UHGV virus genome: UHGV-0175251
Length of the DNA: 29,947 nt
Source of the DNA: a virus
Direction: 5' to 3' (one strand)
This document shows, one piece after another, positions 4,372 to 17,824 of this stretch. Below the pieces are notes generated by a model. It did no database searches. It worked only from the letters and a program-made list of their open reading frames with translations, and had not been told where the DNA came from. Positions within the stretch are counted from its first letter, which is position 1. Each line of letters begins with the position of its first letter. The translations under genes were made by a program, and so were the position numbers.

Positions 4372-4390
4372 ATTGACGTGTAGGCTACAT

Positions 4391-5632: not shown

Positions 5633-5633
5633 T

Positions 5634-5891
5634 ATGTCAGTTTATTCACTTGTTGATGAAAAAGATTTTACTGCAATGCCGGATATTGATCGTGTCATTC
5701 GTGAAAAAGAATGCGTGGCACTTACTACGCTGGCAAATTCAACACGCTGGAAACTGGAAAAGACAGGTAAGTTCCCAAAACGTATTAAGATTGGTGAACG
5801 TGCCGCTGGCTATCGTCTCTCGGAGATTCAGGCGTGGATCCGTGGCGATTGGCACCCAGGATGGAAACCGGAAAAAACAAAACAGCAATAA
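5634..5891 (+). CDS. alpA: AlpA-family HTH regulator (possible excisionase)
   Basis: 85 aa, 1 nt after the int stop, GAGG SD. LANSTRWKLEKTGKFPKRIKIGERAAGYRLSEIQAWIR resembles the AlpA family. Confidence 0.7.
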   Translation: MSVYSLVDEKDFTAMPDIDRVIREKECVALTTLANSTRWKLEKTGKFPKRIKIGERAAGYRLSEIQAWIRGDWHPGWKPEKTKQQ

Positions 5892-5907
5892 CCAGGAGAT
5901 AAACACA

Positions 5908-5932
5908 GCCCCGCTCAATGCGGGGTTTTTTG
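5908..5932 (+). terminator. rho-independent terminator after alpA
   Basis: GCCCCGC / TCAAT / GCGGGG hairpin followed by TTTTTT. Confidence 0.75.
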
Positions 5933-5950
5933 TATGTGAGGTAAAAAGCG

Positions 5951-6529
5951 ATGAATAAAAATATTGCCGTGACGGGCAAAGGTGACGCTCGTCTAGTAAA
6001 AAAATTCTGTGATATTCGTGATCTGGTCGTTCTGCGCTTTGATGGTGTGAACGTTCGCGTGGTGTATCTGAACGGCGATCCGTGGTTTGTTGCAGTTGAC
6101 GTGTGCGCTGCGCTGGAAATTGTTGATCACAAGGTTGCGTTACGCCGTCTCGATGATGATGAAAAGGGGGAGTGTTTAATACCCACCCTTGGCGGAAATC
6201 AAACAATGCGAACTGTATGCGAGTCAGGTTTCTACAAACTAATAGCCCGTAGCCGCAAAGCAACGACGCCTGGCACGTTCGCCCATCGTTTCAGTAACTG
6301 GGTATTCAGAAATGTGATACCGGGTATCAGAAAAACGGGGGCTTATGGTATCCCGTGGGGCGCATTACAGGATTTTTCCCGCCGTAAAGAGCAATATCAG
6401 ATAAGTGCCAGCGAGAAGGGGAGGGAGCTACAGGCATGTAAGCGCAAAAAGCGTGAGCTGGAGGAAGAAGAAAAAAGGCTGATACGTGAATATCAGCCTG
6501 AGTTTTACTTTGGTGAGCGTATTCAGTAA
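5951..6529 (+). CDS. Bro-N domain protein (antirepressor-like)
   Basis: 192 aa; N-terminus LRFDGVNVRVVYLNGDPWFVAVDVCAALEI has the Bro-N / phage antirepressor signature; C-terminus charged. GAGGT SD before the ATG. Confidence 0.7.
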   Translation: MNKNIAVTGKGDARLVKKFCDIRDLVVLRFDGVNVRVVYLNGDPWFVAVDVCAALEIVDHKVALRRLDDDEKGECLIPTLGGNQTMRTVCESGFYKLIARSRKATTPGTFAHRFSNWVFRNVIPGIRKTGAYGIPWGALQDFSRRKEQYQISASEKGRELQACKRKKRELEEEEKRLIREYQPEFYFGERIQ

Positions 6530-6810
6530 CCACTCGCAGTGCTGATTATACGGTACATCGTGTTAACCGGGAAGCTACCCACCAGCAAGGCAAAATCTTC
6601 TGCTAAAAAATGATATATGGTCAGCCGTCCGGAAAGCATGAAATTTTACAAAAATGGAAAATGAAGATTTTTATTGTGCTGGTGGGTAAAAACAAAAAGC
6701 GCCCCGTTGCCGGAGCGCCTTTGTGAACAATTAACCTACTGCGCAAAAAATGAATCTGAGCAGTGGGATTATATCAACCGTGTGACGAAGCGCCACAATT
6801 GCCGGATAAC

Positions 6811-6842
6811 AGGCAAAACAAAGGCCACCCGCTACGGTGGCC
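6811..6842 (-). terminator. candidate intrinsic terminator for the leftward small-gene operon
   Basis: GGCCACC / CGCTAC / GGTGGCC perfect 7-bp stem; on the minus strand it is followed by TTTGTTTTG. Confidence 0.5.
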
Positions 6843-6960
6843 CTTCAACACAAGCTACACGTTATCCCCAACGCATGAGCATCACCAACAATGCCACATT
6901 TGCGGCTGGTGGGCAAAGCTTTAGCGGAATTTTTTCCCTGTTGCCTGGAGTGGGTAATGA

Positions 6961-7143
6961 TTACTTGTATCGCTTATTCCTGCACAAAACAGGGCTGCTC
7001 TTTTTGATGAAATCCTCAAGCAAAAAACACTCTGTTGATGCTCTTGGTAATTCTCTGGTGGAAGGATGGGGTTTTATCCCCCATTTTCGTTTACGTTCTT
7101 CCAGAAAGGAGGTGAGTATATCTAGTTTCTGTGCGTCCATCAT
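6961..7143 (-). CDS. hypothetical small protein (60 aa)
   Basis: Third ORF in a leftward series with regular 57-bp spacing; weak SD; no recognisable homology. Confidence 0.3.
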   Translation of the reverse strand: MMDAQKLDILTSFLEERKRKWGIKPHPSTRELPRASTECFLLEDFIKKSSPVLCRNKRYK

Positions 7144-7200
7144 TTTTCTCTTGGATACTTCTTTGTGCCATGGATCCTCACACCACGGCGCTGATAGTGG

Positions 7201-7398
7201 TTATTTCTGCTCTTCAACATCACCATGTCGTGATGTTTTCCAGGTATGCGACCCCATTTTTGTGCGCCTGTACTCTTTTAAGAACTTCTCAAGGCCAAAC
7301 GCACATGGCGCGAATCTCTCCTGTTCTTGTTCGCTTACCGCGTTTTTGCGTTGTTTTTTCCTGGATGAAGATAATTTCTTTAATGATTTGTCAGTCAT
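7201..7398 (-). CDS. hypothetical small basic protein (65 aa)
   Basis: Second ORF of the leftward series (MTDKSLKKLSSSRKKQRKNAV...); no recognisable homology. Confidence 0.35.
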   Translation of the reverse strand: MTDKSLKKLSSSRKKQRKNAVSEQEQERFAPCAFGLEKFLKEYRRTKMGSHTWKTSRHGDVEEQK

Positions 7399-7455
7399 CG
7401 TAGATACCTGTAACCCAGTGCGCCACAGTTCACCGCACCACGGCGCTGGTGATGG

Positions 7456-7635
7456 TTACTCCTGCTCTTTGGCCTTGCGACGCTGGCGGCGTTTGATCTC
7501 GCCTTGCATTGACGCAATGATGAATTGTGATGTGCTTTCGCCTGATTCTTTCACTGATTCCATGGCGTTTACTATTTCGTGTGGTACACGAGCCTTTAGA
7601 GCTTGTGATTTTGCGTTTGTTGTACCCGTTGCCAT
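7456..7635 (-). CDS. putative ribbon-helix-helix DNA-binding protein (candidate repressor)
   Basis: 59 aa from ATG at 7635-7633 with GAGG SD. ALKARVPHEIVNAMESVKE...TSQFIIASMQGEI fits a strand-helix-helix pattern. Transcribed divergently from the rightward operon. Confidence 0.5.
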   Translation of the reverse strand: MATGTTNAKSQALKARVPHEIVNAMESVKESGESTSQFIIASMQGEIKRRQRRKAKEQE

Positions 7636-7639
7636 TTCT

Positions 7640-7740
7640 ATTCCTCTGGTGGATTGGTGGGGAACAGTATACACAGAAAAAACACAAATAAAACTCTTGA
7701 CGTGGACCACACCTAAAACATATAGTGGGCCACACCTTAA
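7640..7740. promoter_or_regulatory. divergent promoter/operator region of the element
   Basis: Rightward TTGACG (7697-7702) and TATAGT (7721-7726), 18-bp spacer. Direct repeats TGGACCACACCT (7703-7714) and TGGGCCACACCT (7725-7736) overlap it. Leftward -10 TATACT on the minus strand around 7657-7662 precedes the RHH gene. Confidence 0.55.
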
Positions 7741-7834
7741 AATTATCAAGGCGCATAAATGCAAAGCCCCGCAAGTGTCGTTACCACTCGCAGGGCTTCT
7801 AACCACCAACGATAGAAAGAGTATCGAGGTAGCT

Positions 7835-8038
7835 ATGAGAAATCATACCACACACCCGCAAGGGCGGGACTCGCACAACCTGAATAAATACATCTGGCGT
7901 TTTATCGCCCTGAGCACGGCACAACCGCGCGTGATTACCATCGAGGCCACCAGCGAACAGGAAGCACGCCAGCAATCTCCGGCTGGCTGCGTGATGGTAT
8001 TCGCCGCCCGTATTCGCCAGGAGGTGCGCCATGATTAA
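7835..8038 (+). CDS. hypothetical protein (possibly Icd-like)
   Basis: 67 aa, first gene after the rightward promoter, GAGG SD. KYIWRFIALSTAQP...FAARIRQEVRH resembles Icd-like proteins of P4-type elements from memory only. Confidence 0.45.
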   Translation: MRNHTTHPQGRDSHNLNKYIWRFIALSTAQPRVITIEATSEQEARQQSPAGCVMVFAARIRQEVRHD

Positions 8039-8243
8039 CCTGTCACTTACCGACCTTAACCGCATTCAGTTTCGTGAGAAATTTACCGGGCAGTTGTTGG
8101 TTAATGTGGATAAAGGTCGCGTGGTGTGTAATTACCACCTGCCAGATGAAGCAATTGTCGCAACAAGGGAATCATTACAGGAACTCGCAGAGCGTGCCGG
8201 AATGATTAACGCGAATATTCAGGGGGTGAGACATGTGCAATAA
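8031..8243 (+). CDS. hypothetical protein (70 aa)
   Basis: ATG overlaps the upstream stop (translational coupling); part of the operon. Confidence 0.45.
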   Translation: MINLSLTDLNRIQFREKFTGQLLVNVDKGRVVCNYHLPDEAIVATRESLQELAERAGMINANIQGVRHVQ

Positions 8244-8496
8244 CCCCCGTCCGGACGCAGCCGCCGAAGCTATCAGAACGCTGATGCACGCGCTGATTGA
8301 TATTTCATGCACGGCAGCAACCGCAGAAAAACACATTACCATAGAGCCGGAATATACAGGGGCAATAATCCCGCATTCGCTGGCATACGCACAGCTTACC
8401 GCTGATATGGCACTGAATGAGGCCAAAGCTATCCTGATTGCTGATTGTGAAAATGGGGGGGGGTGGTTATGCGTGATGATCGTTTTAATGCCCTGA
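8233..8496 (+). CDS. hypothetical protein (87 aa)
   Basis: AGGGGG SD; overlaps neighbours; no recognisable homology. Confidence 0.4.
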   Translation: MCNNPRPDAAAEAIRTLMHALIDISCTAATAEKHITIEPEYTGAIIPHSLAYAQLTADMALNEAKAILIADCENGGGWLCVMIVLMP

Positions 8497-8702
8497 AACA
8501 GGAATTTGATGGCGCACCGGAAGATACAGATATTGCGCTGTTATGTGTTGCTGACATGGTAAAAGCTGCATGTTTTTTACTGGAAACCGCCGAACATTCA
8601 GGAACGGGTAGCGATATTCTCAATATTGCGTCGGACTATGCGGAATATGTGGCAGAGACGCGTTACAGAAGTAAATTCCCGGAGGGGGTGAGCCATGCAT
8701 GA
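8469..8702 (+). CDS. hypothetical protein (77 aa)
   Basis: G-rich SD; first in-frame ATG at 8469 (track start 8463 is GTG). Confidence 0.4.
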   Translation: MRDDRFNALKQEFDGAPEDTDIALLCVADMVKAACFLLETAEHSGTGSDILNIASDYAEYVAETRYRSKFPEGVSHA

Positions 8703-8928
8703 TATTTACAATGACACAGTAGACCATGCATACAGCGCACTTGCTTACAGTGAAAACATGCTTGAAATATTGCGCTTATGGCTTGAAACGCTTGGCGATA
8801 ATGAAAGAGATAAACGCAACAGCAATATTGCAACAGCATTAATAACGCTTCTTGAGCCTGTAATAAATGAACTGCAAGAAATAGACATCTTGCACGACAG
8901 ATATAAAGAGCCACACACCGGAGAATAA
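8695..8928 (+). CDS. hypothetical protein (77 aa)
   Basis: GGAGGGGG SD; start overlaps the upstream stop. Confidence 0.45.
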   Translation: MHDIYNDTVDHAYSALAYSENMLEILRLWLETLGDNERDKRNSNIATALITLLEPVINELQEIDILHDRYKEPHTGE

Positions 8929-8933
8929 AAACC

Positions 8934-9233
8934 ATGAAAAAGAAAAATTCTGGCTTTACTGCCAGCGGCCCCGCTCGGCCTGAAATCCGCCCAGGCGATA
9001 TTTTCCGGGATAACTACGGCGGCACGGTAACGATTAAAAGTATTGCCGGACGGTGCGTTACTTACCGCCGTGATGGGTACAGCTACGACTGCGTGATGCC
9101 TGTTTATCAGTTCCGGCGTGATTTTTCGCTGGTACAGGCCACACCACGCAGACAGCCCACCAGCAACGCAAAGGCACGGGCAAATATTCAGAAAATGAAA
9201 AACATGATTAACGCATTCAGGGGTAAAAAATGA
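8934..9233 (+). CDS. hypothetical protein (99 aa)
   Basis: GGAGAA SD; its stop overlaps the start of the replication gene (ATGA). Confidence 0.45.
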   Translation: MKKKNSGFTASGPARPEIRPGDIFRDNYGGTVTIKSIAGRCVTYRRDGYSYDCVMPVYQFRRDFSLVQATPRRQPTSNAKARANIQKMKNMINAFRGKK

Positions 9234-10645
9234 AACTGGCACCGAACTTAAAAAAACAGCCGCACGACAAAATGACCGAAGTCATTATTTTTGCGGGTAG
9301 TGATGCCTGGGCGCACGCGAAACAGTGGCAGGAACAGGACGGGCGACTTGCTGGCGACAACGTGCCGCCTGTATGGCTTGGAGACAACCAGCTTGACGAA
9401 CTGGCAGACCTGAAAATCATCGATGATGGTCGCTATTGTGTCCGGCTGTACAAGGCAGGCCACATCAAGCCGTCAAATATTAATGCCATCGGGCAAAAGC
9501 TGGCGGCGGCAGGTGTACGGGATGCGAATTATTACCCTGAGGGAATGCACAGCCAGAAGCTGGAGAACTGGCACGACTACCTGCAACGGATCCGCGAACA
9601 GGCAGAGCGCGGGGAAATACTTACTGACGAGCAATACAGCCAGCGAAAAACCACACTACCAATGAGCATTGGGTCCGCAGGATACGACACACAGCTTGAT
9701 TATGTCGTTAAGGGCGTGATTCCGGCTAATTCGTTGTGCAGCACATACGGCGCGAGCGGTTCCTATAAATCGTTCCTCGCGTGTTCCTGGGCGTGTCATG
9801 TTGCCACGGGTCGCCACTGGGGAGGCCGCAGGGTGGCGCATGGTTCGGTGATGTATGTTGTCGGTGAAGGGGGTATAGGTGTCCCCCGCCGTATCAAGGC
9901 ATGGGAAATCGTTAATGATGAACGGGTGGAAAATTTGTACCTGGTAAACCGCCCGATTTTTCCGGCTGTCCCGCTTGATGTTGATGAAATGGTTATCGCG
10001 TCCCGCCAGGTTGAACGGGAAACGGGTAAACCGGTACGCATGATTATTCTGGATACGCTGGCGCGTTGCTTTGGTGGTAATGATGAAAATGACGCGCGGG
10101 ATATGGGGGCGTTTATCCGTGGATGTGACGAACTGAAACGACGCACAGGGGCCACGGTGCTGGTGGTTCACCATTCCGGCAAGGATGAAACAAAGGGGGC
10201 ACGTGGTTCCAGTGCATTTCGTGCATCTCTGGACGCTGAATACCGTATTCGCCGTGAAGGTGCGGACAGTGAAGCCCTGGTTATCTCCTGCACCAAAATG
10301 AAGGACGCGGAGGAACTGAAAGAGGCTGCATATGATTTACGCGTGGTGGAGCTTTTTACCGACGCTGACAAGGAGTTAATCACGTCGCTGGTGGTTGTGG
10401 ATAAGCCGCGCCCACCAGTTGAACTGGAGCGCATCGAGGAAGCCGGGAACAAGACGGAGAATCACGCCGCGCTATGGGGCTGTATCCGTTCACGCACACA
10501 GCGCGGCGATAAATGCACTATCCCGTTATTGCGTGATGATATGAAAAAGCTGGGGTATGAGATGAAGCACTTTAGTCGCTGGTTACGCAAGCTGGAAAGT
10601 GACGACGTAATCGCTATTGACGGCGATGATGTTCACCCGATGTAA
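9230..10645 (+). CDS. replication initiator / RepA-like (AAA_25-type) helicase
   Basis: 471 aa. Deviant Walker A GASGSYKS, Walker B-like RMIILDTLARCF and VLVVHHSGKDETKG motif typical of RepA-like RecA-fold helicases. Iterons immediately downstream. Primase activity cannot be judged from sequence alone. Confidence 0.7.
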   Translation: MKLAPNLKKQPHDKMTEVIIFAGSDAWAHAKQWQEQDGRLAGDNVPPVWLGDNQLDELADLKIIDDGRYCVRLYKAGHIKPSNINAIGQKLAAAGVRDANYYPEGMHSQKLENWHDYLQRIREQAERGEILTDEQYSQRKTTLPMSIGSAGYDTQLDYVVKGVIPANSLCSTYGASGSYKSFLACSWACHVATGRHWGGRRVAHGSVMYVVGEGGIGVPRRIKAWEIVNDERVENLYLVNRPIFPAVPLDVDEMVIASRQVERETGKPVRMIILDTLARCFGGNDENDARDMGAFIRGCDELKRRTGATVLVVHHSGKDETKGARGSSAFRASLDAEYRIRREGADSEALVISCTKMKDAEELKEAAYDLRVVELFTDADKELITSLVVVDKPRPPVELERIEEAGNKTENHAALWGCIRSRTQRGDKCTIPLLRDDMKKLGYEMKHFSRWLRKLESDDVIAIDGDDVHPM

Positions 10646-10850
10646 AAAGTGGGGAACAAAAGTGGGGAGAGTGGGGAATTTAACAAAAAATCAACGTTAC
10701 TCCCCACTTTCCCACCTGTATATACCCAAAAAAGTGGGGAGTAAAAAACACATTGAAAAACATCACGTTAGAATCACAAAAAAACGAGGTGGGGAGCAAG
10801 TGGGGAATTTTAAAAAGTGGGGAACAAAAGTGGGGAGTGGTGGGGAATGA
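10646..10850. repeat. iteron array: about 10 copies of GTGGGGA (candidate ori)
   Basis: GTGGGGA at 10649, 10662, 10671, 10734, 10789, 10800, 10817, 10830, 10840 and inverted (TCCCCAC) at 10701, set in A-rich DNA directly after the rep stop. Confidence 0.75.
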
Positions 10851-11098
10851 ACAGAAAAACCAGAGATAAAACAGTGCCAAAATATCGCGCATTAGACATG
10901 ACAGAGCACGCCTTAAAGGTGGCAATCAGAACGATAGACCGCCACGCCGGGGAAGGATACGCGAAAGCACATCCCGAACTGATAAGCGCATTCATGGCCA
11001 CGACGGCGGCAAACTTTGCCACGCTGACAGAACGGGAGATTGCCGAAGCGGAACAGGTGACAACCATCAACGTTAAAACCGGAGAGCAAACAGCATGA
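10847..11098 (+). CDS. hypothetical protein (83 aa)
   Basis: ATG at 10847 at the end of the iterons; overlaps the SSB start. Confidence 0.4.
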   Translation: MNRKTRDKTVPKYRALDMTEHALKVAIRTIDRHAGEGYAKAHPELISAFMATTAANFATLTEREIAEAEQVTTINVKTGEQTA

Positions 11099-11517
11099 CA
11101 GCACAGATAGCGGCTTACGGGCGGCTGGTGGCTGACCCACAGTTAAAGACCACCAGCAAAGGGACACAAATGGCGATGGCGAGTATGGCGGTTCCCCTGC
11201 CGTGCAGCCAAGCAGATGACGGAACGGCGACGATGTGGTTATCCGTCCTGGCGTTTGGCAGACAGGCCGACGCACTGGCAAAACACCACAAAGGCGAACT
11301 GGTGAGCGTGGCGGGTAACATGCAGGTAAGCCAGTGGACAGGCCAGAACGGCGAAACGCGGCAGGGCTGGCAGGTTATCGCAGACAGCGTAATCAGTGCC
11401 AGAACGGCGCGACCGGGCGGCAAAAAAGGCCAGCAGGGCCAGGCTACTGACGCACTGAACAGGGCAAAACAACAGGCGGGAAATGATGATCCGTACTGGG
11501 ATAACATACCGTTTTAA
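11095..11517 (+). CDS. ssb: single-stranded DNA-binding protein
   Basis: 140 aa with OB-fold-like pattern (GRLVADPQL...W.SV.AFG..A..L.KH.KGELVSVAG...W....G..R....V) and an acidic C-terminal tip ...DPYWDNIPF resembling the E. coli SSB DDDIPF tail. Confidence 0.65.
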   Translation: MTAQIAAYGRLVADPQLKTTSKGTQMAMASMAVPLPCSQADDGTATMWLSVLAFGRQADALAKHHKGELVSVAGNMQVSQWTGQNGETRQGWQVIADSVISARTARPGGKKGQQGQATDALNRAKQQAGNDDPYWDNIPF

Positions 11518-11533
11518 GCAACGAGTGACAGAA

Positions 11534-11597
11534 GCCGGGATTTTTCCCGGCTTTTTTGTGCGCAAAAAAAATCCCCCGGGATGAGGTTCCGGGGGAT
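11534..11597. terminator. pair of hairpins: + strand terminator (11534-11558) and a minus-oriented one (11571-11597)
   Basis: GCCGGGA / TTTTT / TCCCGGC then TTTTTT; followed by AAAAAAAA, ATCCCCCGG / 9-nt loop / CCGGGGGAT. Confidence 0.7.
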
Positions 11598-11674
11598 TTC
11601 ACGCCGCTAACGTGATTAGCGCTGAATGACTCTGTGGTACAAGGAGTAAAACCACGGCATCATGATTTCATGAT

Positions 11675-11723
11675 TTGCAACAACAGTCAATGTCATTGCA
11701 AAAAATGCAATGATAATTAAAAT
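11675..11723 (+). promoter_or_regulatory. candidate promoter with overlapping palindromic operator for the capsid module
   Basis: TTGCAA (11696-11701), 16-bp spacer, TAAAAT (11718-11723). Perfect palindrome CATTGCA-AAAAA-TGCAATG (11694-11712) overlaps the -35. Confidence 0.45.
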
Positions 11724-11775
11724 CATGAATGACTTTTCGTTATGTTTATTTTTTAGTCAAAGAGGAATCTCATTT

Positions 11776-11982
11776 ATGGGAACACAGAAGCCGGGCGGTG
11801 TATCCGTGTACATCAGCCCCGATATTATCGCCGCACTTAATGCGCGCTTTGAGGAGAACGCAGAGGCAGGAAAAAAAATCGGCCTTGATCCGTTGTGCCT
11901 GGTGAAGCCGTCAGTCGGCTGGATGGTACGCAGCCATTTACGCGCTGCGCTTGGTATGAATCAGCCTCATGGGGGTGAGTAA
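11776..11982 (+). CDS. hypothetical small protein, possibly ribbon-helix-helix
   Basis: 68 aa, AAGAGG SD. VSVYISPDIIAALNARFEENAEAGKK...WMVRSHLRAAL is compatible with an RHH fold. Stop overlaps the capsid-homolog start. Confidence 0.4.
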   Translation: MGTQKPGGVSVYISPDIIAALNARFEENAEAGKKIGLDPLCLVKPSVGWMVRSHLRAALGMNQPHGGE

Positions 11983-13037
11983 TGACAGCGCCGCAACTGG
12001 TAAGCACACCAACGCTACTGAAAAATATCGGGCGCGAAGATGTGCCGGAATTTAAATTTAATCCACTCTTTACTACGTTGTTCTTTCCGAACGTCGCTAC
12101 TTTCAGCACCAGAGATATTGCACTTGATACGCTGGATATTGAAAACGTGGTCATGAGTCCGTTTTGTTCTCCAATGTCAGGCAGCCAGGTTATGCGTGAC
12201 AAAGGTTTCACAACGAACACGTTCACGCCGGGTTATATGAAGCCCAAACACGTTATTGATCCCACCAAAACAATCATGCGCATGGCTGGAGAACAGATCG
12301 GCAATGGTCAGTCTTCCCCGGCACTACGCCGCGTAAAAATGGTTCACGACAGCCAGAAAAAACAGCTTGCTGCCATCAAAGCGCGTGTTGAATGGCTGGC
12401 GGTCAATGCCATCACAACAGGCCGTAACGTTATTGAAGGCGAAGGCATTGAGCGTTATGAAATTGACTGGGGATTACCCGCAACCAATCATATTACGCAG
12501 GCTGGCGGGAAAGAATGGTCAAAACAGGATGCCGAAACGTTTGATCCGATAAGCGACATTGAGGCTTACGCTGATTTTTCCAAAGGTACGGTAAATATTA
12601 TCGTCATGGGTGGCGAAGCCTGGCGTATTTTGCGCTCGTTCCGTCGATTCCGCGAACTCCTGGACACGCGTCGCGGTTCAAACTCGTCACTTGAACTTGC
12701 GCTAAAAGATTTGGGCGGCGTTGTCAGCTTCAAGGGGTATCTCGGTGATGTGGCGCTCGTGGTTTATTCCGGTCGTTATGACGACGAATACGGGCAGCAG
12801 CAATATTTCCTGAAACAAAACATGCTGGTTTTCGGCAATACCGAAAATAAAGGCCTTGTTGCTTATGGTGCCATCATGGATCAGGACGCGGCACGCGAGG
12901 GGTTTTCTGAGGGGATGTACTACCCGAAAAATTATATCGTACCTGGCGATCCGGCGATTGAATACGTGCAGACGCACAGCGCCCCGCAGCCAGTACCCGT
13001 GGATATTGGTCGCTTTGTTACCGTCGAAGTGAAATAA
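11982..13037 (+). CDS. major capsid protein homolog (lambda gpE-like), element-encoded
   Basis: 351 aa. Shares FTPGY.KPKH, NITQAGG[KR]EWSKQ[DN]A[ED]TFDP, REKLDTRRGS, ALKDLG.VVSFKGY, GNT...G..YGAI.D and YPK motifs with the prophage E protein (17825-18853) and with lambda gpE. Confidence 0.9.
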   Translation: MTAPQLVSTPTLLKNIGREDVPEFKFNPLFTTLFFPNVATFSTRDIALDTLDIENVVMSPFCSPMSGSQVMRDKGFTTNTFTPGYMKPKHVIDPTKTIMRMAGEQIGNGQSSPALRRVKMVHDSQKKQLAAIKARVEWLAVNAITTGRNVIEGEGIERYEIDWGLPATNHITQAGGKEWSKQDAETFDPISDIEAYADFSKGTVNIIVMGGEAWRILRSFRRFRELLDTRRGSNSSLELALKDLGGVVSFKGYLGDVALVVYSGRYDDEYGQQQYFLKQNMLVFGNTENKGLVAYGAIMDQDAAREGFSEGMYYPKNYIVPGDPAIEYVQTHSAPQPVPVDIGRFVTVEVK

Positions 13038-13047
13038 AGGGGATCGT

Positions 13048-13377
13048 ATGCCAACACCTTACACGCAATTCCTTTCCGGCACGCAGGAACTGGTCAGCAC
13101 GCTGGCCTGTTTTGCCAGTGCCGGAGAAATTAAAGCGAGAACTCCGCTGATGCAGAACGGCGCGGGCCTGATGGTTGAGTGGGACGGTACACCCGGTAAG
13201 GCGGTGTATCTGACCATATCGGACATTAACACGGCCACAAAAAACCGCGCACAGGTTTATAAGTGCGGGGTTTTTAATATCGATGAAATTAACTGGCCTG
13301 ATACAGCGGACACGTTCGAGAAAAAAGTGTCGGCTTTTGTTGGTTCCGGTATTTCCGTGCAGCCTTTAGGGCAATAA
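13048..13377 (+). CDS. head decoration protein homolog (lambda gpD-like), element-encoded
   Basis: 109 aa directly after the capsid homolog. TPLM, WDG and AFVGSGIS motifs shared with the prophage D (17420-17755). Confidence 0.7.
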   Translation: MPTPYTQFLSGTQELVSTLACFASAGEIKARTPLMQNGAGLMVEWDGTPGKAVYLTISDINTATKNRAQVYKCGVFNIDEINWPDTADTFEKKVSAFVGSGISVQPLGQ

Positions 13378-13391
13378 TTTTGTGGTGATTT

Positions 13392-13817
13392 ATGACTGAG
13401 AAAGCAAATTCAACCAGAGCATTGATCATGGCACTGCCTGAGGCGCAGAAATACCCGACGCTTGCGGAAAATCTCGCAAATAATGGCGCATCACTGACAG
13501 AAGCCCGAACGGTGCTTACTGCAAAGGCTGAGAGTGATAAACAGCGCATAGAGGGTATCAAGGCGTTACCGCTGGCATCAAAATACCCTGAGTTCACCAG
13601 TAAGCTGATTGAGTGTGGTTCTGAAGTAATGACAGTAACCTATGCACAAACGTTACTGGCTGCCGTGGATGCCCAGGCAATGATGCAGGAAAAGAAAACG
13701 GCTTTTCTGTTTGAAGCGTACATGGAAAAGCACAGCCCGAAATGTGTTGGATCAGCAGCCGGTGATGGCAACGCCGGACTGACCGAAGATGAAAAGCTGT
13801 TGCTGTCTGTTAAGTAA
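13392..13817 (+). CDS. scaffold-like protein (Nu3-like repeats), element-encoded
   Basis: 141 aa. Two repeat-like units (ALPEAQKYPTLAENL..., ALPLASKYPEFTSKL...) and C-terminus TAFLFEAYMEKH...GDGNAGLTEDEKLL resemble the repeat unit and C-terminus of the prophage C/Nu3 (...VTLFERFMAQH...GTAGNGEEELL). Confidence 0.6.
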   Translation: MTEKANSTRALIMALPEAQKYPTLAENLANNGASLTEARTVLTAKAESDKQRIEGIKALPLASKYPEFTSKLIECGSEVMTVTYAQTLLAAVDAQAMMQEKKTAFLFEAYMEKHSPKCVGSAAGDGNAGLTEDEKLLLSVK

Positions 13818-13830
13818 CTGAAATGAACGT

Positions 13831-13863
13831 TCGCGAGGCTGGCAAGGTCTCGCGATTTTTTTT
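13831..13863 (+). terminator. rho-independent terminator after the capsid module
   Basis: TCGCGAG / 11-nt loop / CTCGCGA followed by eight Ts. Confidence 0.8.
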
Positions 13864-13896
13864 GTATCCGTAACGGTGGTGATCGCCCCAATTTTC

Positions 13897-13975
13897 ACGG
13901 GTCCTTTCCAGAACCAGAAACACCGCGGGGCGGCAGACGCGCAAAAAAGCGCTATTTATGACGCTTTCCGGGAAA
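13897..13975 (+). promoter_or_regulatory. element-borne cos site
   Basis: ACGGGTCCTTTCC (13897-13909), GGGGCGGCAG (13927-13936) and GCTATTTATGA (13951-13961) reproduce the prophage cos motifs at 509/540/564 with nearly identical spacing (30 vs 31 and 24 vs 24 nt). Flanking sequence differs. Confidence 0.75.
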
Positions 13976-14028
13976 GGGTACACCACCACCACTTGATTAA
14001 TATTTAATCGCATTATTAAGGTAACGTT

Positions 14029-14469
14029 ATGAATAATAAAGATTGTTTTGTTAGTCAGCAGGAAATAGCAGAACATTTCAAGGTCAACAGAACCACTATT
14101 CGCGCATGGACCAAACAGGGCATGCCGTATCTTGATGCGGATCGCGGAAAGTCCGGCGGTTATCACATCGGACACACATTATTCTGGTGCATGGGTAAAA
14201 GTCATCTTGATGCTATTGAGTACCACGGAGAAACCAGCGCACTGGAAAAGATTATGGTTGCCAGGTTGATTTCATTAGAGCGCGACGAGTATTTCAGTGA
14301 AGAAACAGAACAGCGATTTGATAATGGTCTGCAGATTTACGGGTACTCGCCGGAAGATGTGAGCAAGGCACGAAATAAAATGGCTGGCTTTCTGGCTGGG
14401 TGGCGTCATGCCGTAGCCGTTCGCCGTGAGCATCTGCAACAATCTGTAGTTACAGAGCAGGAAAACTAA
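14029..14469 (+). CDS. small terminase-like protein (Nu1-like N-terminal HTH)
   Basis: 146 aa just downstream of the element cos. N-terminus VSQQEIAEHFKVNRTTIRAWTKQGMPYLDADRGKSGG parallels Nu1 ([24 protein letters not shown]...GGSKG). The C-terminal half is unrelated to Nu1. Confidence 0.65.
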   Translation: MNNKDCFVSQQEIAEHFKVNRTTIRAWTKQGMPYLDADRGKSGGYHIGHTLFWCMGKSHLDAIEYHGETSALEKIMVARLISLERDEYFSEETEQRFDNGLQIYGYSPEDVSKARNKMAGFLAGWRHAVAVRREHLQQSVVTEQEN

Positions 14470-14476
14470 TAAGTAT

Positions 14477-14573
14477 GCAATACAACAACCGCGTATTTTT
14501 GTTAAACCATTTGATTTAATTGGCATTTTTGGAGCCATAACATCAAAAAAACACCCTCAGGTTGTTGTATTGC
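14477..14573. repeat. 14-bp perfect inverted repeat GCAATACAACAACC / GGTTGTTGTATTGC separated by 69 bp
   Basis: 14477-14490 and 14560-14573; contains the GTATTGC motif also present in the arm-type repeats. Confidence 0.5.
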
Positions 14574-14751
14574 TTTCAGTTTTCTCTTAGTTATCAAATG
14601 GATATAACAAACAATTAAACAACAACCACCCCCTCAAAAAATCTCATAAACAGCGCGTTTTTGCGCGTATGGCTACCCCCGGTGTTTTATTTTCCAGGAA
14701 GGACCCGCCACAATTACGGCATTGTTTTCCATCACCACGGAGGCCATGACA

Positions 14752-14937
14752 ATGACCGAAGCCGAAATGCTCAAAATGATTCGCCGCGTTACCGGATCCA
14801 GCAAGACAGCAGGCAAACAGGAGACCACGCAGCCGGACAGCGTGATAGCCGAAAATTACGCGCGTGTGGTGGCTGAGGTGATGCGCCGTGACGGTATTCA
14901 CAAGCAACAATTTGCGTATTGCAATGTGTATTGCTAA
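14752..14937 (+). CDS. hypothetical small protein (about 61 aa)
   Basis: GGAGG SD at 14739-14743; the 3' end runs into the arm-type repeats. Coding status uncertain. Confidence 0.3.
   Translation: MTEAEMLKMIRRVTGSSKTAGKQETTQPDSVIAENYARVVAEVMRRDGIHKQQFAYCNVYC
14913..14936. repeat. integrase arm-type repeats (right arm)
   Basis: TGCGTATTGCAA + TGTGTATTGCTA; the 19-mer GTATTGCAATGTGTATTGC at 14916-14934 is identical to 4321-4339. Confidence 0.65.
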
Positions 14938-15009
14938 CCCTCCAAACGGGGGAAATATGCAAACATAACATATTGTTTTGTCTTTTTATTTTTTCGTATC
15001 TTTTCATAA

Positions 15010-15016
15010 GCGCCAT
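15010..15016. repeat. right junction 7-bp direct repeat GCGCCAT (candidate attR overlap/core)
   Basis: Identical to 4183-4189; portal homology resumes exactly here. Confidence 0.7.
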
Positions 15017-15773
15017 GTATGCCGCCACGATTGAATCCACACTGGATTCGGAAAAAGCGTTTGAATATATCGCCGGGGTGGGAGATGGAGGTAAAAATCC
15101 CCTGAACACCATCATGAAAGGCTACGCGCGTTATTACGCCACCAATACGGTAAAACTGGGCGGGGTCCGTATTCCGCATCTTTACCCGGGAGATTCACTG
15201 AATCTGCAGACAGCCCAGAATGCGGATAATGGTTTTTCTGAACTGGAAAAGGCGCTGTTACGTTACATTGCTGCCGGACTGGGTGTGTCGTATGAGCAGC
15301 TTTCCCGGGATTATTCACAGGTCAGTTATTCCAGTGCCAGGGCATCCGCCAATGAGTCGTGGCGGTATTTTATGGGAAAACGAAAATTTGTGGCCAGTCG
15401 CCTGGCGTCACAGATGTTTGCCTGCTGGCTGGAGGAAGCCCTTATTCGTGGTGTGATCCGTCCGCCGAAATCCCGTTTCTCATTCTGGGAGGCTCGTTCC
15501 GGGTGGTGCCGTGCCGAGTGGATTGGTGCCGGTCGTATGGCGATTGATGGCCTTAAGGAAGTGCAGGAAGCGGTGATGCGCATTGAAGGCGGCCTGAGTA
15601 CATACGAGAAAGAGCTGGCCCTGATGGGGGATGACTATCAGGAGATTTTCCGCCAGCAGCTACGGGAAACTCAGGAGCGACAGGCTGCCGGTCTTCCGCG
15701 TCCGGTCTGGATAAAGAACGCGTTTCAACAGCAGATCCGACAGACAACGGGAGAAAAAGGCGATGCGCTGTAA
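15017..15773 (+). CDS. B: portal protein (lambda gpB homolog), 3' segment
   Basis: (S)AMYAATIES..., GVRIPHLYPGDSLNLQTAQNADNGF, LLRYIAAGLGVSYEQLSRDYSQVSYSSARASANESW and GRMAIDGLKEVQEAVM match the C-terminal half of the lambda portal. Joined to 3375-4189 it gives a continuous 523-codon ORF. Confidence 0.9.
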
Positions 15774-17379
15774 TTTATCACATATTGCCGCGATGGCATT
15801 TAATGAGCCGCTTTTACTGGAACCCGCCTATGCGCGGGTTTTCTTTTGCGCACTGGGTAAGGAGATGGGGGCGGGCAACCTTGCCGTTCCGCAGCAGGCC
15901 GTTCAGCTTGATGCCGATGGTATGCAGCTGGCGGTTACCGATTATATGACTGGTGGTCCGCGTCCGGTAAAGAGTTACCAGGTGAAAAATGGTATTGCCA
16001 TTCTGCCGGTGAGCGGCACGTTGGTACATAAAATGGGTACCCTGCGGCCATATTCCGGTATGACCGGTTATGACGGTCTGACTGCCCGTCTTAAGTCAGC
16101 GGTGAACGACCCGGATGTACGCGGCATTTTACTGGATATCGACAGTCCGGGTGGTCAGGCTGCCGGGGCGTTTGACTGTGCTGACATGATTTACCGTCTG
16201 CGGGAACAGAAGCCCGTGTGGGCGCTGTGTAATGACATGGCCTGTTCAGCCGCCATGTTGCTGGCGGCGGCCTGTACGCGTCGGCTGGTCACGCAGACGG
16301 CAAAAATTGGTTCGATTGGTGTGATGATGGCGCACACCAGTTACGAGAAACAACTGGCACAGGAAGGCGTGGATATCACGCTGATTTACTCCGGGCAGCA
16401 CAAGGTTGACGGCAACAGTATTCAGGCGTTGCCGACAGGTGTGCGTGCGGATTTTCAGCGCCGTATTGATGAGGCCCGCCGGATGTTTGTCGACAAGGTG
16501 GCGCTTTATACGGGGCTGAGTTCAGAGGCGGTGATGAATACCGAGGCTGCCGTTTATGACGGTCAGGCAGGCATTGATATAGGCCTGGCTGATCAACTGA
16601 TTAATGCTGCAGATGCCGTTGATGTAATGGTTTCTGCTCTGAACGACTCTGTTACACAGGAGAATACGATGACAACAAAAAATCTCACCGTTGCTGAAGC
16701 GGTGTCCCAGGAAAATCAGCGCGTGATGGGGATCCTGAATTGTCAGGAGGCGAAAGGACGCGAAAAACTGGCGCAGATGCTGGCAGGTCAGCAGGGAATG
16801 TCAGTTGAGCAGGCAAAAACATTACTGGCGGCAGCACCGGTTGCCGGTACTGACAGCACAGGCGATCAGATTATGGCACTTCTGGAAGCAAAAGGGCGTG
16901 AACAACTGGCACGGACGCTGGCTGAACAGCCGGGAATGACGGTGGAGCAGGCGAAAACGTTACTGGCAGCGGCACCGGTTTCCGGTGCGGCAAGTACCGG
17001 CGAGCAGATTATGGCACTTCCGGAAGCAAAAGGGCGTGAACAACTCGCACAGGCGCTGGCTGAACAGCCGGGAATGACGGTGGAACAGGCGAAAATGCTA
17101 CTGGTAGCGGCACCGGCAACCGGTACGGCAAGTACCGGCGATCAAATTATTGCGTTGCCGGAAGCAAAAGGACGCGAAAAACTGGCACAGGCGCTGGCTG
17201 AACAACCTGGAATGACAGTGGAGCAGGCGAAAACGCTGCTGGCAGCTGCGCCATCAGTATCGCAACCGTCACAGGTAACACTTTTTGAGCGCTTCATGGC
17301 ACAGCATGCCGCCAGTGCCGTTTCCGGTGGCGGAACTGCCGGGAACGGGGAAGAAGAACTGCTGATGAGTATGCCGTAA
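15763..17379 (+). CDS. C: head protease/scaffold fusion protein (lambda gpC homolog)
   Basis: 538 aa. N-terminus HIAAMAFNEPLLLEPAYARVFFCAL and ILPVSGTL, PYSGMTGY, GILLDIDSPGG, GSIGVMMAH, ITLIYSGQHKVDGN match gpC. C-terminal part contains tandem scaffold repeats. Confidence 0.9.
   Translation: MRCNLSHIAAMAFNEPLLLEPAYARVFFCALGKEMGAGNLAVPQQAVQLDADGMQLAVTDYMTGGPRPVKSYQVKNGIAILPVSGTLVHKMGTLRPYSGMTGYDGLTARLKSAVNDPDVRGILLDIDSPGGQAAGAFDCADMIYRLREQKPVWALCNDMACSAAMLLAAACTRRLVTQTAKIGSIGVMMAHTSYEKQLAQEGVDITLIYSGQHKVDGNSIQALPTGVRADFQRRIDEARRMFVDKVALYTGLSSEAVMNTEAAVYDGQAGIDIGLADQLINAADAVDVMVSALNDSVTQENTMTTKNLTVAEAVSQENQRVMGILNCQEAKGREKLAQMLAGQQGMSVEQAKTLLAAAPVAGTDSTGDQIMALLEAKGREQLARTLAEQPGMTVEQAKTLLAAAPVSGAASTGEQIMALPEAKGREQLAQALAEQPGMTVEQAKMLLVAAPATGTASTGDQIIALPEAKGREKLAQALAEQPGMTVEQAKTLLAAAPSVSQPSQVTLFERFMAQHAASAVSGGGTAGNGEEELLMSMP
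16669..17379 (+). CDS. nu3: scaffold protein (Nu3-like), nested in frame in the 3' part of C
   Basis: Internal ATG at 16669 preceded by AGGAG; product carries the repeats and the GILNCQEA motif conserved with lambda Nu3. Nested start is by analogy with lambda. Confidence 0.5.
   Translation: MTTKNLTVAEAVSQENQRVMGILNCQEAKGREKLAQMLAGQQGMSVEQAKTLLAAAPVAGTDSTGDQIMALLEAKGREQLARTLAEQPGMTVEQAKTLLAAAPVSGAASTGEQIMALPEAKGREQLAQALAEQPGMTVEQAKMLLVAAPATGTASTGDQIIALPEAKGREKLAQALAEQPGMTVEQAKTLLAAAPSVSQPSQVTLFERFMAQHAASAVSGGGTAGNGEEELLMSMP
16747..17275 (+). repeat. four tandem 138-bp (46-aa) repeats within C/Nu3
   Basis: Protein repeats EAKGRE[KQ]LAQ.LAEQPGMTVEQAKTLLAAAP..G.ASTGDQIMALP occur four times (last truncated); nucleotide units begin near 16747, 16885, 17023 and 17161. 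Confidence 0.8.
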
Positions 17380-17419
17380 GCGGGGATCCGTGATTCAGAT
17401 AAATCAGGAGACTGAGAAA

Positions 17420-17755
17420 ATGATTAAAACCACCACAGAAAAGCGCGCGGACGGGCGCATTTTTGCCGGAAGCGATCCGGTATATACCGCAACAGGTACC
17501 AGTGGTATCAGTGTTGCCACGCCTTCACTGACGCCACTGATGCTGGATGACGCCAGCGGAAAACTGGTGGCATGGGATGGTCAGAAAGCCGGAACGGCTG
17601 TGGGGGTGCTGGTACTGGCGCTGGCCGGGACCGAGCCCACACTGACGTACTACAAAAGCGGTACGTTTGCCACCGAATCGCTGGTCTGGCCGGATTCGGT
17701 GGATGCGGTGAAAAAAGCCAACGCGTTTGTGGGAAGTGCCATCAGCCACGCCTGA
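17420..17755 (+). CDS. D: head decoration protein (lambda gpD homolog)
   Basis: 111 aa from ATG 17420 with AGGAG SD; TPLMLD..S.KLVAWDG and YKSGTF...AFVGSAIS match gpD. Confidence 0.9.
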   Translation: MIKTTTEKRADGRIFAGSDPVYTATGTSGISVATPSLTPLMLDDASGKLVAWDGQKAGTAVGVLVLALAGTEPTLTYYKSGTFATESLVWPDSVDAVKKANAFVGSAISHA

Positions 17756-17809: not shown

Positions 17810-17824
17810 AAAGGAAAGTCAATT

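Follow-up and report, generated by a model that had tools for sequence, protein, structure and literature searches.

How a phage satellite lodged within a prophage governs its own capsid and packaging genes, and whether a palindrome at the head of those genes takes part, is the question raised by this locus. The DNA analysed, a stretch of 29,947 nucleotides hereafter called the window, is a lambda-like prophage in which a helper-embedded PICI satellite of ~10.8 kb splits the portal gene; the two halves of the helper portal gene correspond to positions 2–242 and 235–353 of the Phage_portal_2 profile. The satellite encodes int, AlpA, Bro-N, AAA_25, SSB, capsid and HDPD. Its int-alpA, Bro, replication and late zones, together with a co-directional insertion in a helper late gene, are those of a helper-embedded PICI. 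In agreement with the HE-PICIs of Tommasini et al. 2023, it is inserted in the portal gene close to position ~241 of the Phage_portal_2 profile, and PMC10111431 lists the site group B:Phage_portal_2:241; a portal-interrupting embedded PICI is an arrangement already in the literature. Gene order in the late region is the same as in EcCICFT073 (c1499–c1503, rppA), as is the arrangement of cos and Rpp, and the satellite belongs to the EcCICFT073/HE-PICI family. A cosN-like satellite cos region (13923–13961, plus strand) is recognizable from its similarity to the helper cos at 536–574 and from the literature on EcCICFT073 cos1. Iteron-like repeats at 10643–10860 mark the likely ori, and the att and arm repeats lie at 4316–4379 and 14911–14934.

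The late promoter and its operon

The initial annotation had placed a capsid/packaging-module promoter, here termed P_late, upstream of these genes, and this assignment is borne out by two upstream terminators, conserved −35 and −10 hexamers, a Shine-Dalgarno sequence and a translationally coupled operon. The plus-strand −35 hexamer TTGCAA (11696–11701) and −10 hexamer TAAAAT (11718–11723), separated by a 16 bp spacer, score 9/12 in a promoter consensus scan, as befits sigma70 hexamers, with a start predicted at ~11730. TTGC and TAWAAT are 86–100% conserved among 66 unique relatives; TTGC reads as invariant across the relatives, most of which carry TTGCAC rather than TTGCAA at the −35 and TATAAT at the −10. 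About 45 bp downstream of the hexamers come the Shine-Dalgarno region AAAGAGGAA (11758–11766, plus strand), an invariant block in the relatives' alignments, and, ~9 nt further, the ATG at 11776.

Upstream of P_late, an inverted repeat forms terminator T1 (11532–11557, plus strand; stem AAGCCGGGA/TCCCGGCTT followed by T6) at the end of rightward transcription out of the SSB gene. A second hairpin, T2 (11564–11599, minus strand; stem AAATCCCCCGG/CCGGGGGATTT), was recognized from its inverted repeat and from folding; it is oriented mainly against leftward transcription, because its long run, A8 on the plus strand, becomes a U8 that follows the stem in a minus-strand transcript. The stretch 11520–11610 folds at −45.2 kcal/mol (z −5.3), and EcCICFT073 has the same A7-stem-T4 layout at the T2 position in unrelated sequence. 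These terminators insulate the late operon from the genes before it, and the operon has a conserved −35/−10 of its own. The P_late architecture recurs in 233/5426 E. coli genomes and in EcCICFT073, where the promoter upstream of the capsid gene is homologous to P_late at about 71% identity. P_late, with its predicted start, is very probably a genuine promoter.

All genes of the operon lie on the plus strand. The first encodes a 68-aa protein of phrog_3255 (11776–11982), and its stop codon overlaps the capsid start codon (TAATG). There follow the satellite major capsid protein (11982–13037; Phage_cap_E, E 3.4e-46), a homologue of the head decoration protein HDPD (13048–13377) and a 141-aa scaffold-like protein (13392–13817; phrog_1999, and phrog_53 positions 502–578) that resembles head maturation proteases in their C-terminal, scaffold-like region. 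The last recognizable late-module gene (14029–14469) encodes an Rpp-like winged-HTH protein with a NRTTIRAWTKQG motif, which was compared with the RppC residues of PMC6739421.

A conserved dyad core and its upstream partner

The palindrome CATTGCA-AAAAA-TGCAATG is present at 11694–11712 as first described, and its reported overlap with the TTGCAA −35 of P_late holds. The perfect dyad is longer than had been claimed, with 8-bp arms (TCATTGCA-AAAAA-TGCAATGA, 11693–11700 and 11706–11713). We refer to the element as O_down (11693–11713, assigned to neither strand); its conserved core, TTGCA-N5-TGCAA, spans 11696–11710 and is centred on 11703, ~−27 for P_late. Judged from this single sequence, the palindrome has modest significance. 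With up to three mismatches allowed, the full pattern occurs once in the window against 0.26 expected, and at least once in 25/100 shuffles. Perfect 8-bp inverted repeats with spacers of up to 10 bp yield 18 raw matches in the window against ~5.7 in shuffles, most of the 18 being terminator stems, and ~10% of shuffles of the local 126-bp AT-rich stretch produce such a perfect 8-bp palindrome.

The palindrome stands above chance because its core, TTGC...TGCAA, is 94–100% conserved in 55–66 unique homologous promoters, a count to be read with the phylogenetic relatedness, and hence non-independence, of both comparison sets (55 or 66 unique relatives). In the columns beside the core, 11700–11701 and 11712–11713, conservation drops to 62–77%. 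Core pairs 11696–11699/11707–11710 are complementary in 51–55 of 55 sequences, the TGCAA resident in the spacer is 94–100% conserved, and the P_late spacer positions 11702–11711 (AAAATGCAAT) are 92–100% conserved; sigma70 spacers are normally free of sequence constraint. The core looks protein-bound because invariant G/C-containing positions sit inside the promoter spacer, and the element combines inverted half-sites, fixed spacing and conservation beyond promoter needs, as a dyad operator should. The arms themselves are a different matter. Only 5 bp per arm, not 7–8, are kept as a conserved unit among the 55 unique relatives; the perfect 8-bp dyad occurs in 3/55, and pairs 11694/11712, 11693/11713 and 11700/11706 are complementary in 7/55, 34/55 and 37/55, respectively. 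Outer arm bases vary without compensation, with 11700 being A, G or T opposite an invariant T at 11706. The palindromic operator of the initial annotation thus survives as a 5-bp core that behaves like a protein-binding site, and its 7–8 bp arms do not survive as the functional unit.

The earlier description mentioned neither a second dyad, present upstream of O_down, nor a predicted divergent promoter. The second dyad, O_up (TTTCA-TGATT-TGCAA, 11666–11680, assigned to neither strand), is centred on 11673, ~−57 from the predicted P_late start. The exact motif TTKCA-N5-TGMAA, defined post hoc from the same data, has just two sites in the window, O_up and O_down, against 0.22 expected. O_up lies exactly 30 bp upstream of O_down in 45/66 relatives, and the four half-sites (h1 to h4) are therefore spaced 10, 20 and 10 bp centre to centre. 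Clean dyads occupy the O_up position in the relatives L120, L139, L010 and L014. In L120, a distant relative, the dyad unit is present as two clean 22-bp copies, 32 bp apart, and L139, likewise distant, reads TTGCG-N5-TGCAA-N15-TTGCA with spacing identical to that of the window, the other intergenic DNA being not recognizably similar by eye. In six complete islands the dyad motif has no other conserved position, so a local, single-target regulator fits. Wider searches added no further relatives: a megablast of the region against phage genomes gave no match, and in species-representative genomes a DNA pattern scan returned chance matches alone, in AT-rich unrelated taxa, while a protein-pattern scan turned up no relatives.

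The divergent promoter, P_div (11662–11690, minus strand), is sigma70-like and scores 9/12 with TG in the promoter scan. Its −35, TTGACT, is the reverse complement of 11685–11690 and its extended −10, TGA+AATCAT, that of 11662–11670, with a 17 bp spacer; the diagnostic positions 11662, 11663, 11665–11667, 11669, 11670 and 11687–11690 are 94–100% conserved (n = 66). O_up, centred at ~−18 for P_div, spans the core of this back-to-back promoter, and O_down spans the P_late −35 and upstream spacer. Part of the dyad conservation is accordingly explicable by RNA polymerase, because the left arm of O_down is the −35 (TTGC) and h1 is the P_div extended −10. From P_div to T2, a putative leftward RNA of ~90 nt (11564–11655, minus strand) would fold at −38.4 kcal/mol (z −5.4) into three stem-loops; it has no Rfam family at gathering score and we treat this predicted RNA as a lead only. 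Through a 9-nt direct repeat, TGAATGACT (11623 and 11726), the leftward RNA would be complementary to the late mRNA start. We rejected this repeat, which is near chance expectation and lacks conservation in the close relative HNSQ2209. A third dyad, TGATTA/TAATCA, is centred on the −10 (11714–11725, neither strand); it is imperfect here (TAATTA/AAATCA), and 6–7 of its 7 pairs are symmetric in 52/55 unique relatives.

Proposed regulation and competing readings

These features suggest a model in which P_late contains a bipartite operator and the palindrome forms its promoter-proximal half. P_late would drive a late operon comprising the 68-aa ORF, capsid, decoration and scaffold-like proteins, cos and Rpp. 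A dimeric or tetrameric sequence-specific protein would sit on the dyads and hold down P_late and P_div by occlusion, and late expression would follow release of this repressor, a rise in satellite copy number or anti-terminated helper late read-through. That the palindrome core is a protein-binding operator, as predicted from sequence conservation, is rather probable. An operator pair acting negatively on the satellite's own late promoter is, in our judgement, evenly poised. The operator may well be repressive because its dyads are centred at ~−27 and ~−57, O_down lies over the −35 and spacer and the −10 is near consensus; taken by itself, this sign falls a little short of an even call.

Our leading guess for the binder is the product of the first gene, which would regulate its own operon much as Arc does at P22 Pant, and we regard this candidate as doubtful. 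The 68-aa protein has no match in Pfam, PDB or fold searches and no detected DNA-binding fold, an Arc/CopG-like ribbon-helix-helix included, and a tblastn search against phage genomes gave no match; the phrog_3255 relatives form a tiny family. By a count of its charged residues, the protein has a net charge of ~+1 in the window and −1 in CFT073, atypical values for a repressor. In its favour, L139 encodes a distant relative of the protein (profile E 1.9e-5) with a TTGCA-type array upstream, and downstream of it come small ORFs and a tail-spike gene in place of the capsid genes, so that operator and small gene have been inherited together despite different cargo. As a guess, the binder is only slightly less likely to be a conserved host factor, for instance one with CytR-like half-sites, than the first gene product. 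Rpp was rejected as the dyad binder; the conserved PICI cosB segment ACACCACCACCACTTGATTAATATTTAA has nothing in common with the dyads. The most far-reaching version of the model, which we consider unlikely, is that the four TTGCA-type half-sites, arrayed over 45 bp with two-fold symmetry, could be an undescribed switch common to the EcCICFT073 family and helper-embedded PICIs, in which phrog_3255, as a new family of tiny proteins, would bind both dyads and toggle between the divergent ~90-nt RNA and the capsid/Rpp operon, timing interference with the helper.

A tie to the integrase had also been suggested, through a ATTGCAAT core common to the palindrome and the integrase arm repeats. This correspondence is inexact, as the palindrome reads ATTGCAAA and AATGCAAT. 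Exact ATTGCAAT occurs in the window at 4323 and 14918 only, and the motif is not enriched, with 13 matches (up to one mismatch) against 20.9 expected. E. coli C311 has a promoter region 99.4% identical to that of the window, an integrase and AlpA that are 24% and 32% identical, and arm repeats of TAGCTA type; CFT073 has the promoter and unrelated, GTAGTTAAT-type arm repeats. Since C311 pairs a near-identical promoter with a different integrase and arms, the likeness of ATTGCAA to the arm repeats is coincidental. An integrase arm-type or AlpA site is rejected by this module shuffling, the motif not co-varying with the integrase/att module, and no copy of it lies upstream of alpA or int. On these sequence comparisons, the predicted operator is tied to neither the integrase nor the AlpA module, which removes a misleading link between the palindrome and the arm repeats; the site looks more like a repressor-type operator than an integrase-linked "on" switch.

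Could the conservation reflect promoters without any operator? The left arm would then be simply the −35, the right arm AAATGCAAT a separately constrained spacer or UP-like element for P_late or P_div, and the perfect palindrome an accident of this lineage. The rarity of the perfect dyad (3/55 relatives), its variable, uncompensated outer arms and the ~10% of local shuffles that give such a palindrome are all consistent with this account, as are TTGC and TTTCA, both of them RNA-polymerase recognition elements of the two promoters; the A-tract at 11702–11705 would fall at −47 to −50 of P_div, a location suited to an UP element. UP elements and spacers leave unexplained, however, the invariant G and C at 11707–11708 and 11677–11678, the recurrence of the full dyad unit at a second, non-−35 position in L120 and L139, and the fixed 30-bp spacing, and we assign this account a low though appreciable probability. 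That the palindrome acts as a nucleic-acid structure is very improbable and largely refuted, be it as a hairpin or terminator in read-through RNA, as a cruciform in the DNA, or as a site of packaging, replication or recombination (cos, ori, att). The palindrome, if transcribed, folds at −11.4 kcal/mol (z −4.8), but its stem is A/T-rich with no U-run after it on either strand, as an intrinsic terminator would have, and T1 and T2 should halt transcripts arriving from upstream. The 55 sequences hold one double (compensatory) change and broken pairs are common, no Rfam family matches, and the satellite cos, likely ori and att/arm repeats all lie elsewhere; the helper cos at 536–574 matches the satellite at 13923–13961 and not at 11693.

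Turning to proteins other than a dedicated repressor, the initial annotation had expression switched on through the palindrome, possibly by a helper- or element-encoded regulator. On this reading a helper- or satellite-encoded activator would bind the dyads (for instance h2–h3 at ~−42, or O_up at −57) and turn the late operon on after helper induction. The positions are indeed those of classical class I (O_up, ~−57) and class II (h2/h3, ~−42) activators, and the −35 is an imperfect one, being TTGCAA in the window and TTGCAC in most relatives. O_down, however, overlaps the −35 and spacer, and P_late should not need activation, because its −10 is the consensus TATAAT in most relatives. Lambdoid late genes are controlled by Q antitermination, not by activation, which also speaks against such a site. 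Helpers do induce PICIs via the activator AlpA, but helpers of differing immunity and Q types mobilize these PICIs (PMC6092414). AlpA is moreover 32–56% identical between islands whose promoters are 99% or 71% identical, and upstream of alpA and int the motif is absent. The claim of switching on is not supported, with O_down placed like repressor operators and nothing tested favouring activation; we give an activator a small probability.

Less probable still is a host CytR-type operator, through which the cytidine repressor of E. coli/Salmonella, possibly with CRP, would tie late expression to nucleoside/cAMP status. Known CytR motifs comprise TGCAA-N2-3-TTGCA, TTGCAA and the octamers GTTGCATT/AATGCAAC, with spacers of 0 to ~3 helical turns (PMC3454398). 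The half-sites here (h2 ATTTGCAAC, h3 ATTGCAAA, h4 AAATGCAAT) are of that kind: h2 and h4 each match the octamer at 7/8 positions, the h2–h3 gap of 13 bp is within the published 10–13 bp, exact GTTGCATT occurs in L139, and the natural udp operator is TTATGCAAC-GCA-TTTGCGTCA. CytR repression, though, needs CRP with a CRP site within ~5 bp (PMC3454398), and no TGTGA-N6-TCACA match of at least 8/10 is found in any of the 66 promoters. A 7/10 CRP site at −145 is confined to CFT073-type sequences and is not seen in the window type, P_late is not of the CRP-dependent type, and the dyads (TTGCA-N5-TGCAA) are everted, the usual order being TGCAA...TTGCA. Other regulators were discarded. The best Fur box (GATAATGATAATCATTATC) matches, 13–14/19 at 11706 and 11712, are background, with 19 such sites on the two strands of the window. 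A lambda CII promoter would require TTGC-N6-TTGC where the sequence is TTGC-N5-ATGC, and its TTGC is the −35 itself. Judged by eye against consensus sequences, none of LexA, IHF, Fis, sigma54, P2 Ogr/P4 Delta (TGT-N12-ACA) and P1 C1 fits.

Relation to known regulatory systems

The PICI literature examined contains no description of P_late, its dyads or P_div, nor of late-operon timing; published regulation ends at AlpA and its own promoter. P_late drives Rpp and the capsid homologues across the EcCICFT073 family, and Rpp both blocks helper packaging and redirects packaging to the satellite. The predicted operator pair and the candidate divergent RNA thus offer mutable targets for when and how Gram-negative PICIs start interference. 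They could reveal whether embedded satellites depend on a promoter of their own or on read-through from the helper, and are relevant to tuning engineered PICI delivery vehicles.

Set against systems already described, the bipartite operator proposed here has partial counterparts. CytR operators (udp, deoP2, cdd) share the half-sites TGCAA/TTGCA and the octamer AATGCAAY and tolerate long, helically phased spacers; here there are no flanking CRP sites, the half-sites are everted and the promoter is not CRP-dependent. As in SaPI operon I, a dedicated promoter serves a PICI operon for capsid remodelling and packaging. The SaPI operon I promoter is LexA-repressed and off until helper induction, whereas no LexA box is visible here by eye, the host belongs to another phylum and there is no sequence relationship. 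At lambda OR (PR/PRM, OR1–3), related dyads are placed at whole helical turns across divergent promoters, as here, although lambda has three sites at ~23–24 bp in place of two 30 bp apart, no CI/Cro-like gene is adjacent here, and one arm would yield just a ~90-nt RNA. P22 immI (Arc/Mnt operators, Pant/Pmnt) offers an architectural analogy alone. The two systems differ in operator sequence and in the layout of four half-sites found here, and the 68-aa protein has no ribbon-helix-helix or other DNA-binding fold that we could detect. As here, its promoters are divergent and back to back, with a palindromic operator placed between −35 and −10; in P22 the first gene of the regulated operon, arc, encodes a very small repressor.

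The late operon of a portal-embedded satellite

The window covers the head and tail genes of a lambda-like prophage, among them those for the terminase large subunit (1246-3165), an S49 protease (15763-17379), decoration protein D (17390-17755), capsid protein E (17786-18853) and the tape measure (22151-25174). Its portal gene is split, with Phage_portal_2 profile positions 2-242 matching at 3375-4241 and positions 235-353 at 14919-15773; a co-directional satellite (PICI) of ~10.8 kb lies between the two halves (~4190-15016). The profile breaks at about position 241, and the short repeat GCGCCAT is present at both junctions (4183-4189 and 15010-15016). The satellite is a helper-embedded PICI of the kind described by Tommasini, Mageeney and Williams (PMC10111431), whose listed site group B:Phage_portal_2:241 matches the portal insertion here; the context is therefore already known. 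The text of PMC10111431 contains no occurrence of 'operator', 'palindrom' or 'inverted repeat' and does not discuss satellite-internal promoters or operators.

The satellite encodes an integrase (4391-5632), a translationally coupled AlpA (5634-5891), a Bro-N protein (5951-6529), DUF4222 and an AAA_25 replication protein (8934-10645) and an SSB (11095-11517). Downstream of the AAA_25 gene come iteron-like repeats of the AAAAAGTGGGGA type, with intervals of roughly 83-85 bp and 168 bp; this region (10643-10860) is likely the satellite origin of replication. A ~1.4 kb stretch (6600-8030) shows reversed GC skew and imperfect direct repeats of 51 nt (7164/7419) and 33 nt (7039/7630), and lacks a convincing gene, holding only an implausible 454-aa TTG ORF; an Rfam search of this stretch returned nothing near threshold, with C4 and IsrK undetected.

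Two strong hairpins, T1 (11532-11557, T6 at the plus strand end) and T2 (11569-11599, A8 preceding the stem), stand directly upstream of P_late, the predicted promoter of the capsid and packaging operon. Forty-five bases downstream of the promoter, a Shine-Dalgarno sequence and ATG (11776) open a 68-aa ORF, the stop codon of which overlaps the start codon of a Phage_cap_E capsid gene; genes for an HDPD decoration protein and a 141-aa scaffold-like protein (13392-13817) follow. Within head maturation protease families, the 141-aa protein matches nothing but the scaffold-like C-terminal portion (phrog_53 positions 502-578), which suggests a satellite-encoded Nu3-like scaffold. The satellite cos (13923-13961, CCGCGGGGCGGCAGACGCGC...GCTATTTATGA) mimics the matching helper cos (536-574); a conserved PICI-type cosB (ACACCACCACCACTTGATTAATATTTAA) and the gene for an Rpp-like winged-HTH protein (14029-14469) come next, the same as EcCICFT073 cos1/rppA. 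This late-module arrangement is that described for EcCICFT073 (PMC6739421). EcCICFT073 itself shares the layout around the promoter: SSB, PerC, two hairpins, promoter, small ORF, capsid, decoration, cos and Rpp. We are fairly confident that P_late belongs to the satellite itself as its late promoter, with T1 and T2 providing insulation.

A conserved half-site array at P_late

The palindrome at P_late, O_down (11693-11713, TCATTGCA-AAAAA-TGCAATGA), overlaps a TTGCAA hexamer (11696-11701) that a 16-bp spacer separates from TAAAAT (11718-11723), a pair scoring 9/12 in the promoter scan. The initial annotation had described the palindrome with 7-bp arms; the dyad is indeed present and perfect, with arms of 8 bp rather than 7. 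On the window sequence alone it is only modestly unusual, with 0.26 matches to the pattern expected and the pattern present in 25/100 shuffles; shuffling the 126 bp of AT-rich sequence around it yields an inverted repeat with 8-bp arms in about 10% of cases.

Relatives of the region are more informative about its organization. A segment matching 11518-11982 is present in 233 of 5426 complete E. coli genomes. The copy in E. coli strain C311, 99.4% identical, lies within an ordinary PICI at a tRNA-Pro gene, and in CFT073-type islands homology extends from about 11655 through the promoter and small ORF at ~71% identity. A set of 94 upstream regions, 66 of them unique, was assembled; the sources were E. 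coli genomes, IMG/VR, and contigs of Salmonella or metagenomic origin reached via small-protein homologues. Over the 66 unique sequences, column conservation is sharply banded across the promoter region: ATTTCATRATTTGCAAC (11665-11681, 85-100%), TCAA (11687-11690, 94-98%), TTGC (11696-11699, 100%), AAAATGCAAT (11702-11711, 92-100%) and TGATTAWAATCA (11714-11725, 86-100%) alternate with variable columns (11682-11686, 11691-11695, 11700-11701, 11712-11713 and 11726-11728) that fall to 56-77%. The -10 is the consensus TATAAT in most relatives. A third dyad, TGATTA/TAATCA, is centred on the -10 hexamer (11714-11725), symmetric in 52/55 relatives and imperfect in the window; conservation of the flanking TGAT and CA exceeds what the -10 itself explains.

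Dyad pairs were counted in a set of 55 unique segments of 73 bp. Complementarity is found in 51-55 of them for the four inner pairs (11696-11699 with 11707-11710); the corresponding counts are 37 for 11700/11706, 43 for 11695/11711, 34 for 11693/11713 and only seven for 11694/11712. The perfect 8-bp dyad occurs in 3/55 sequences, and a double (compensatory) change in one only. Because the outer pairs vary while the inner four are kept, the conserved unit is TTGCA-N5-TGCAA and not the 7-8 bp arms. Selection does not act on base pairing itself, which counts against a hairpin function of any kind and points to recognition of the sequence. In the core, the left half coincides with the -35 hexamer and the right half lies inside the promoter spacer. 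Spacers of sigma70 promoters are normally unconstrained in sequence, and the invariant G and C of the spacer-resident half are the best individual piece of evidence that a factor binds here.

A related upstream dyad, O_up (11666-11680, TTTCA-TGATT-TGCAA), departs from the O_down core pattern only once. Exact matches to the degenerate motif TTKCA-N5-TGMAA number two in the 30-kb window, and this promoter contains both; 0.22 would be expected, and two matches were reached in 1/100 shuffles, a count that is indicative only since the motif was defined after seeing the data. Both sites fit the strict motif in 46 of the 66 unique relatives, spaced by 30 bp in 45 and by 32 bp in one. One divergent relative (L120) bears two clean 22-bp copies, ATTGCACTTTATGCAATGATGA and GTTGCATGTTATGCAATGATGA, and another (L010) a perfect ATTTCATATTATGAAAT at the O_up position; across six complete islands, the motif is found at no further conserved position. 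The half-site centres are 10, 20 and 10 bp apart and thus lie roughly on one helix face, and the whole 45-bp array is an imperfect palindrome. A third divergent relative is L139 (logan:ERR11525680_10155, 1-4468), where the small protein is related to the 68-aa family only at profile E 1.9e-5 and its gene precedes small ORFs and one for a tail spike (Tail_spike_N), in place of capsid genes. It keeps TTGCG-N5-TGCAA-N15-TTGCA, the same 5-5-5-15-5 framework, in surrounding DNA not recognisably similar by eye. L139 also retains GTGAGGAG iterons and may represent a different kind of satellite late module. Both the core of the palindrome and O_up are probably binding sites for a sequence-specific protein.

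A predicted divergent promoter and leftward RNA

The scan also placed a promoter, P_div, on the minus strand (TTGACT, 17 bp, TG-extended AATCAT; 11690 to 11662). Its diagnostic bases, namely TTGA, the TG of the extended -10, and the A and final T of the hexamer, are 94-100% conserved; conservation of the TTTCA half of O_up may partly reflect this extended -10 rather than a half-site. Relative to the predicted promoters, the centre of O_down falls near -27 of P_late and that of O_up near -18 of P_div; the region is laid out like a switch, with back-to-back promoters and one dyad over each.

P_div is directed at T2, which has a long U-run on the minus strand in the window and in CFT073; a structured leftward RNA of ~90 nt is therefore predicted (window 11564-11690, minus strand). 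Its fold has a z of -5.4 in the window and -3.4 in CFT073, and it has no Rfam family match. The T2 region sequences of the two are unrelated; CFT073-type islands keep P_div and the terminator around an unrelated RNA body. CFT073-type leaders also contain a 14-bp hairpin with a T-run (-19.8 kcal/mol, z -6.5; 9057-9088 of the CFT073 sequence L002, ~3942-3975 in L140). Its 5' arm begins within the -10 hexamer, so that read-through RNA could form the full terminator, while in transcripts initiated at P_late the outer stem would be missing. The window-type leader has no such hairpin (z 0.04).

Candidate binders and relation to known systems

The ATTGCAA that the initial annotation saw as linking the palindrome to the integrase arm repeats proved to be a 7-mer coincidence. 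Integrase and AlpA were rejected as module-linked partners, as in C311 this promoter occurs together with an integrase of 24% identity, an AlpA of 32% identity and arm repeats of the TAGCTA type; the CFT073 arm repeats are different again. In six complete islands, the motif is missing from the neighbourhood of int and alpA. Three copies of TGTGTATTGCAA just upstream of int (4318-4379) and two near the satellite's other end (14911-14934) are probably integrase arm-type sites, functionally unrelated to the promoter dyads; in a Salmonella relative (L012), ATTGCAAT lies just upstream of int (position 660; int start 702). Rpp is an unlikely binder because the conserved satellite cosB has nothing in common with the dyads, and Fur-like matches are no more frequent than background.

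Of the satellite's proteins, the 68-aa first gene product alone is found with the site in every case. It has an invariant segment, GGV(S/T)VYISPDI, at the N-terminus, its net charge is near zero by a count of charged residues, and its relatives number only 13 among 1.8 billion representative proteins. It belongs to no Pfam family, PHROGs assigns it to phrog_3255 with no function attached, and a PDB sequence search gave no match; none of the three provides a DNA-binding link. That this protein binds the array, in an autoregulation resembling that of Arc, is a rather doubtful possibility, and binding by a host factor has almost the same likelihood. One host candidate is CytR, whose published motif (PMC3454398; udp operator) the half-sites resemble: it consists of TGCAA/TTGCA or the octamer GTTGCATT/AATGCAAC, and its spacers can reach three helical turns (PMC3454398); however, CytR depends on CRP sites, none of which is present here, and the promoter is not of a CRP-dependent type.

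O_down lies over both the -35 and the spacer, and the -10 of this promoter is the consensus in most relatives; for that reason we tentatively suggest that occupancy of the site represses. Read-through of helper late transcription has been proposed by Tommasini et al. (PMC10111431); in the embedded state, Q-modified helper late transcription would be expected to pass T1 and T2, and such read-through would bypass P_late. No mention of this regulatory region was found in the PICI literature searched, and the region, common to the window and the model EcCICFT073, appears to be undescribed. A promoter with operators is an ordinary element type, and the helper-embedded PICI context is already published.
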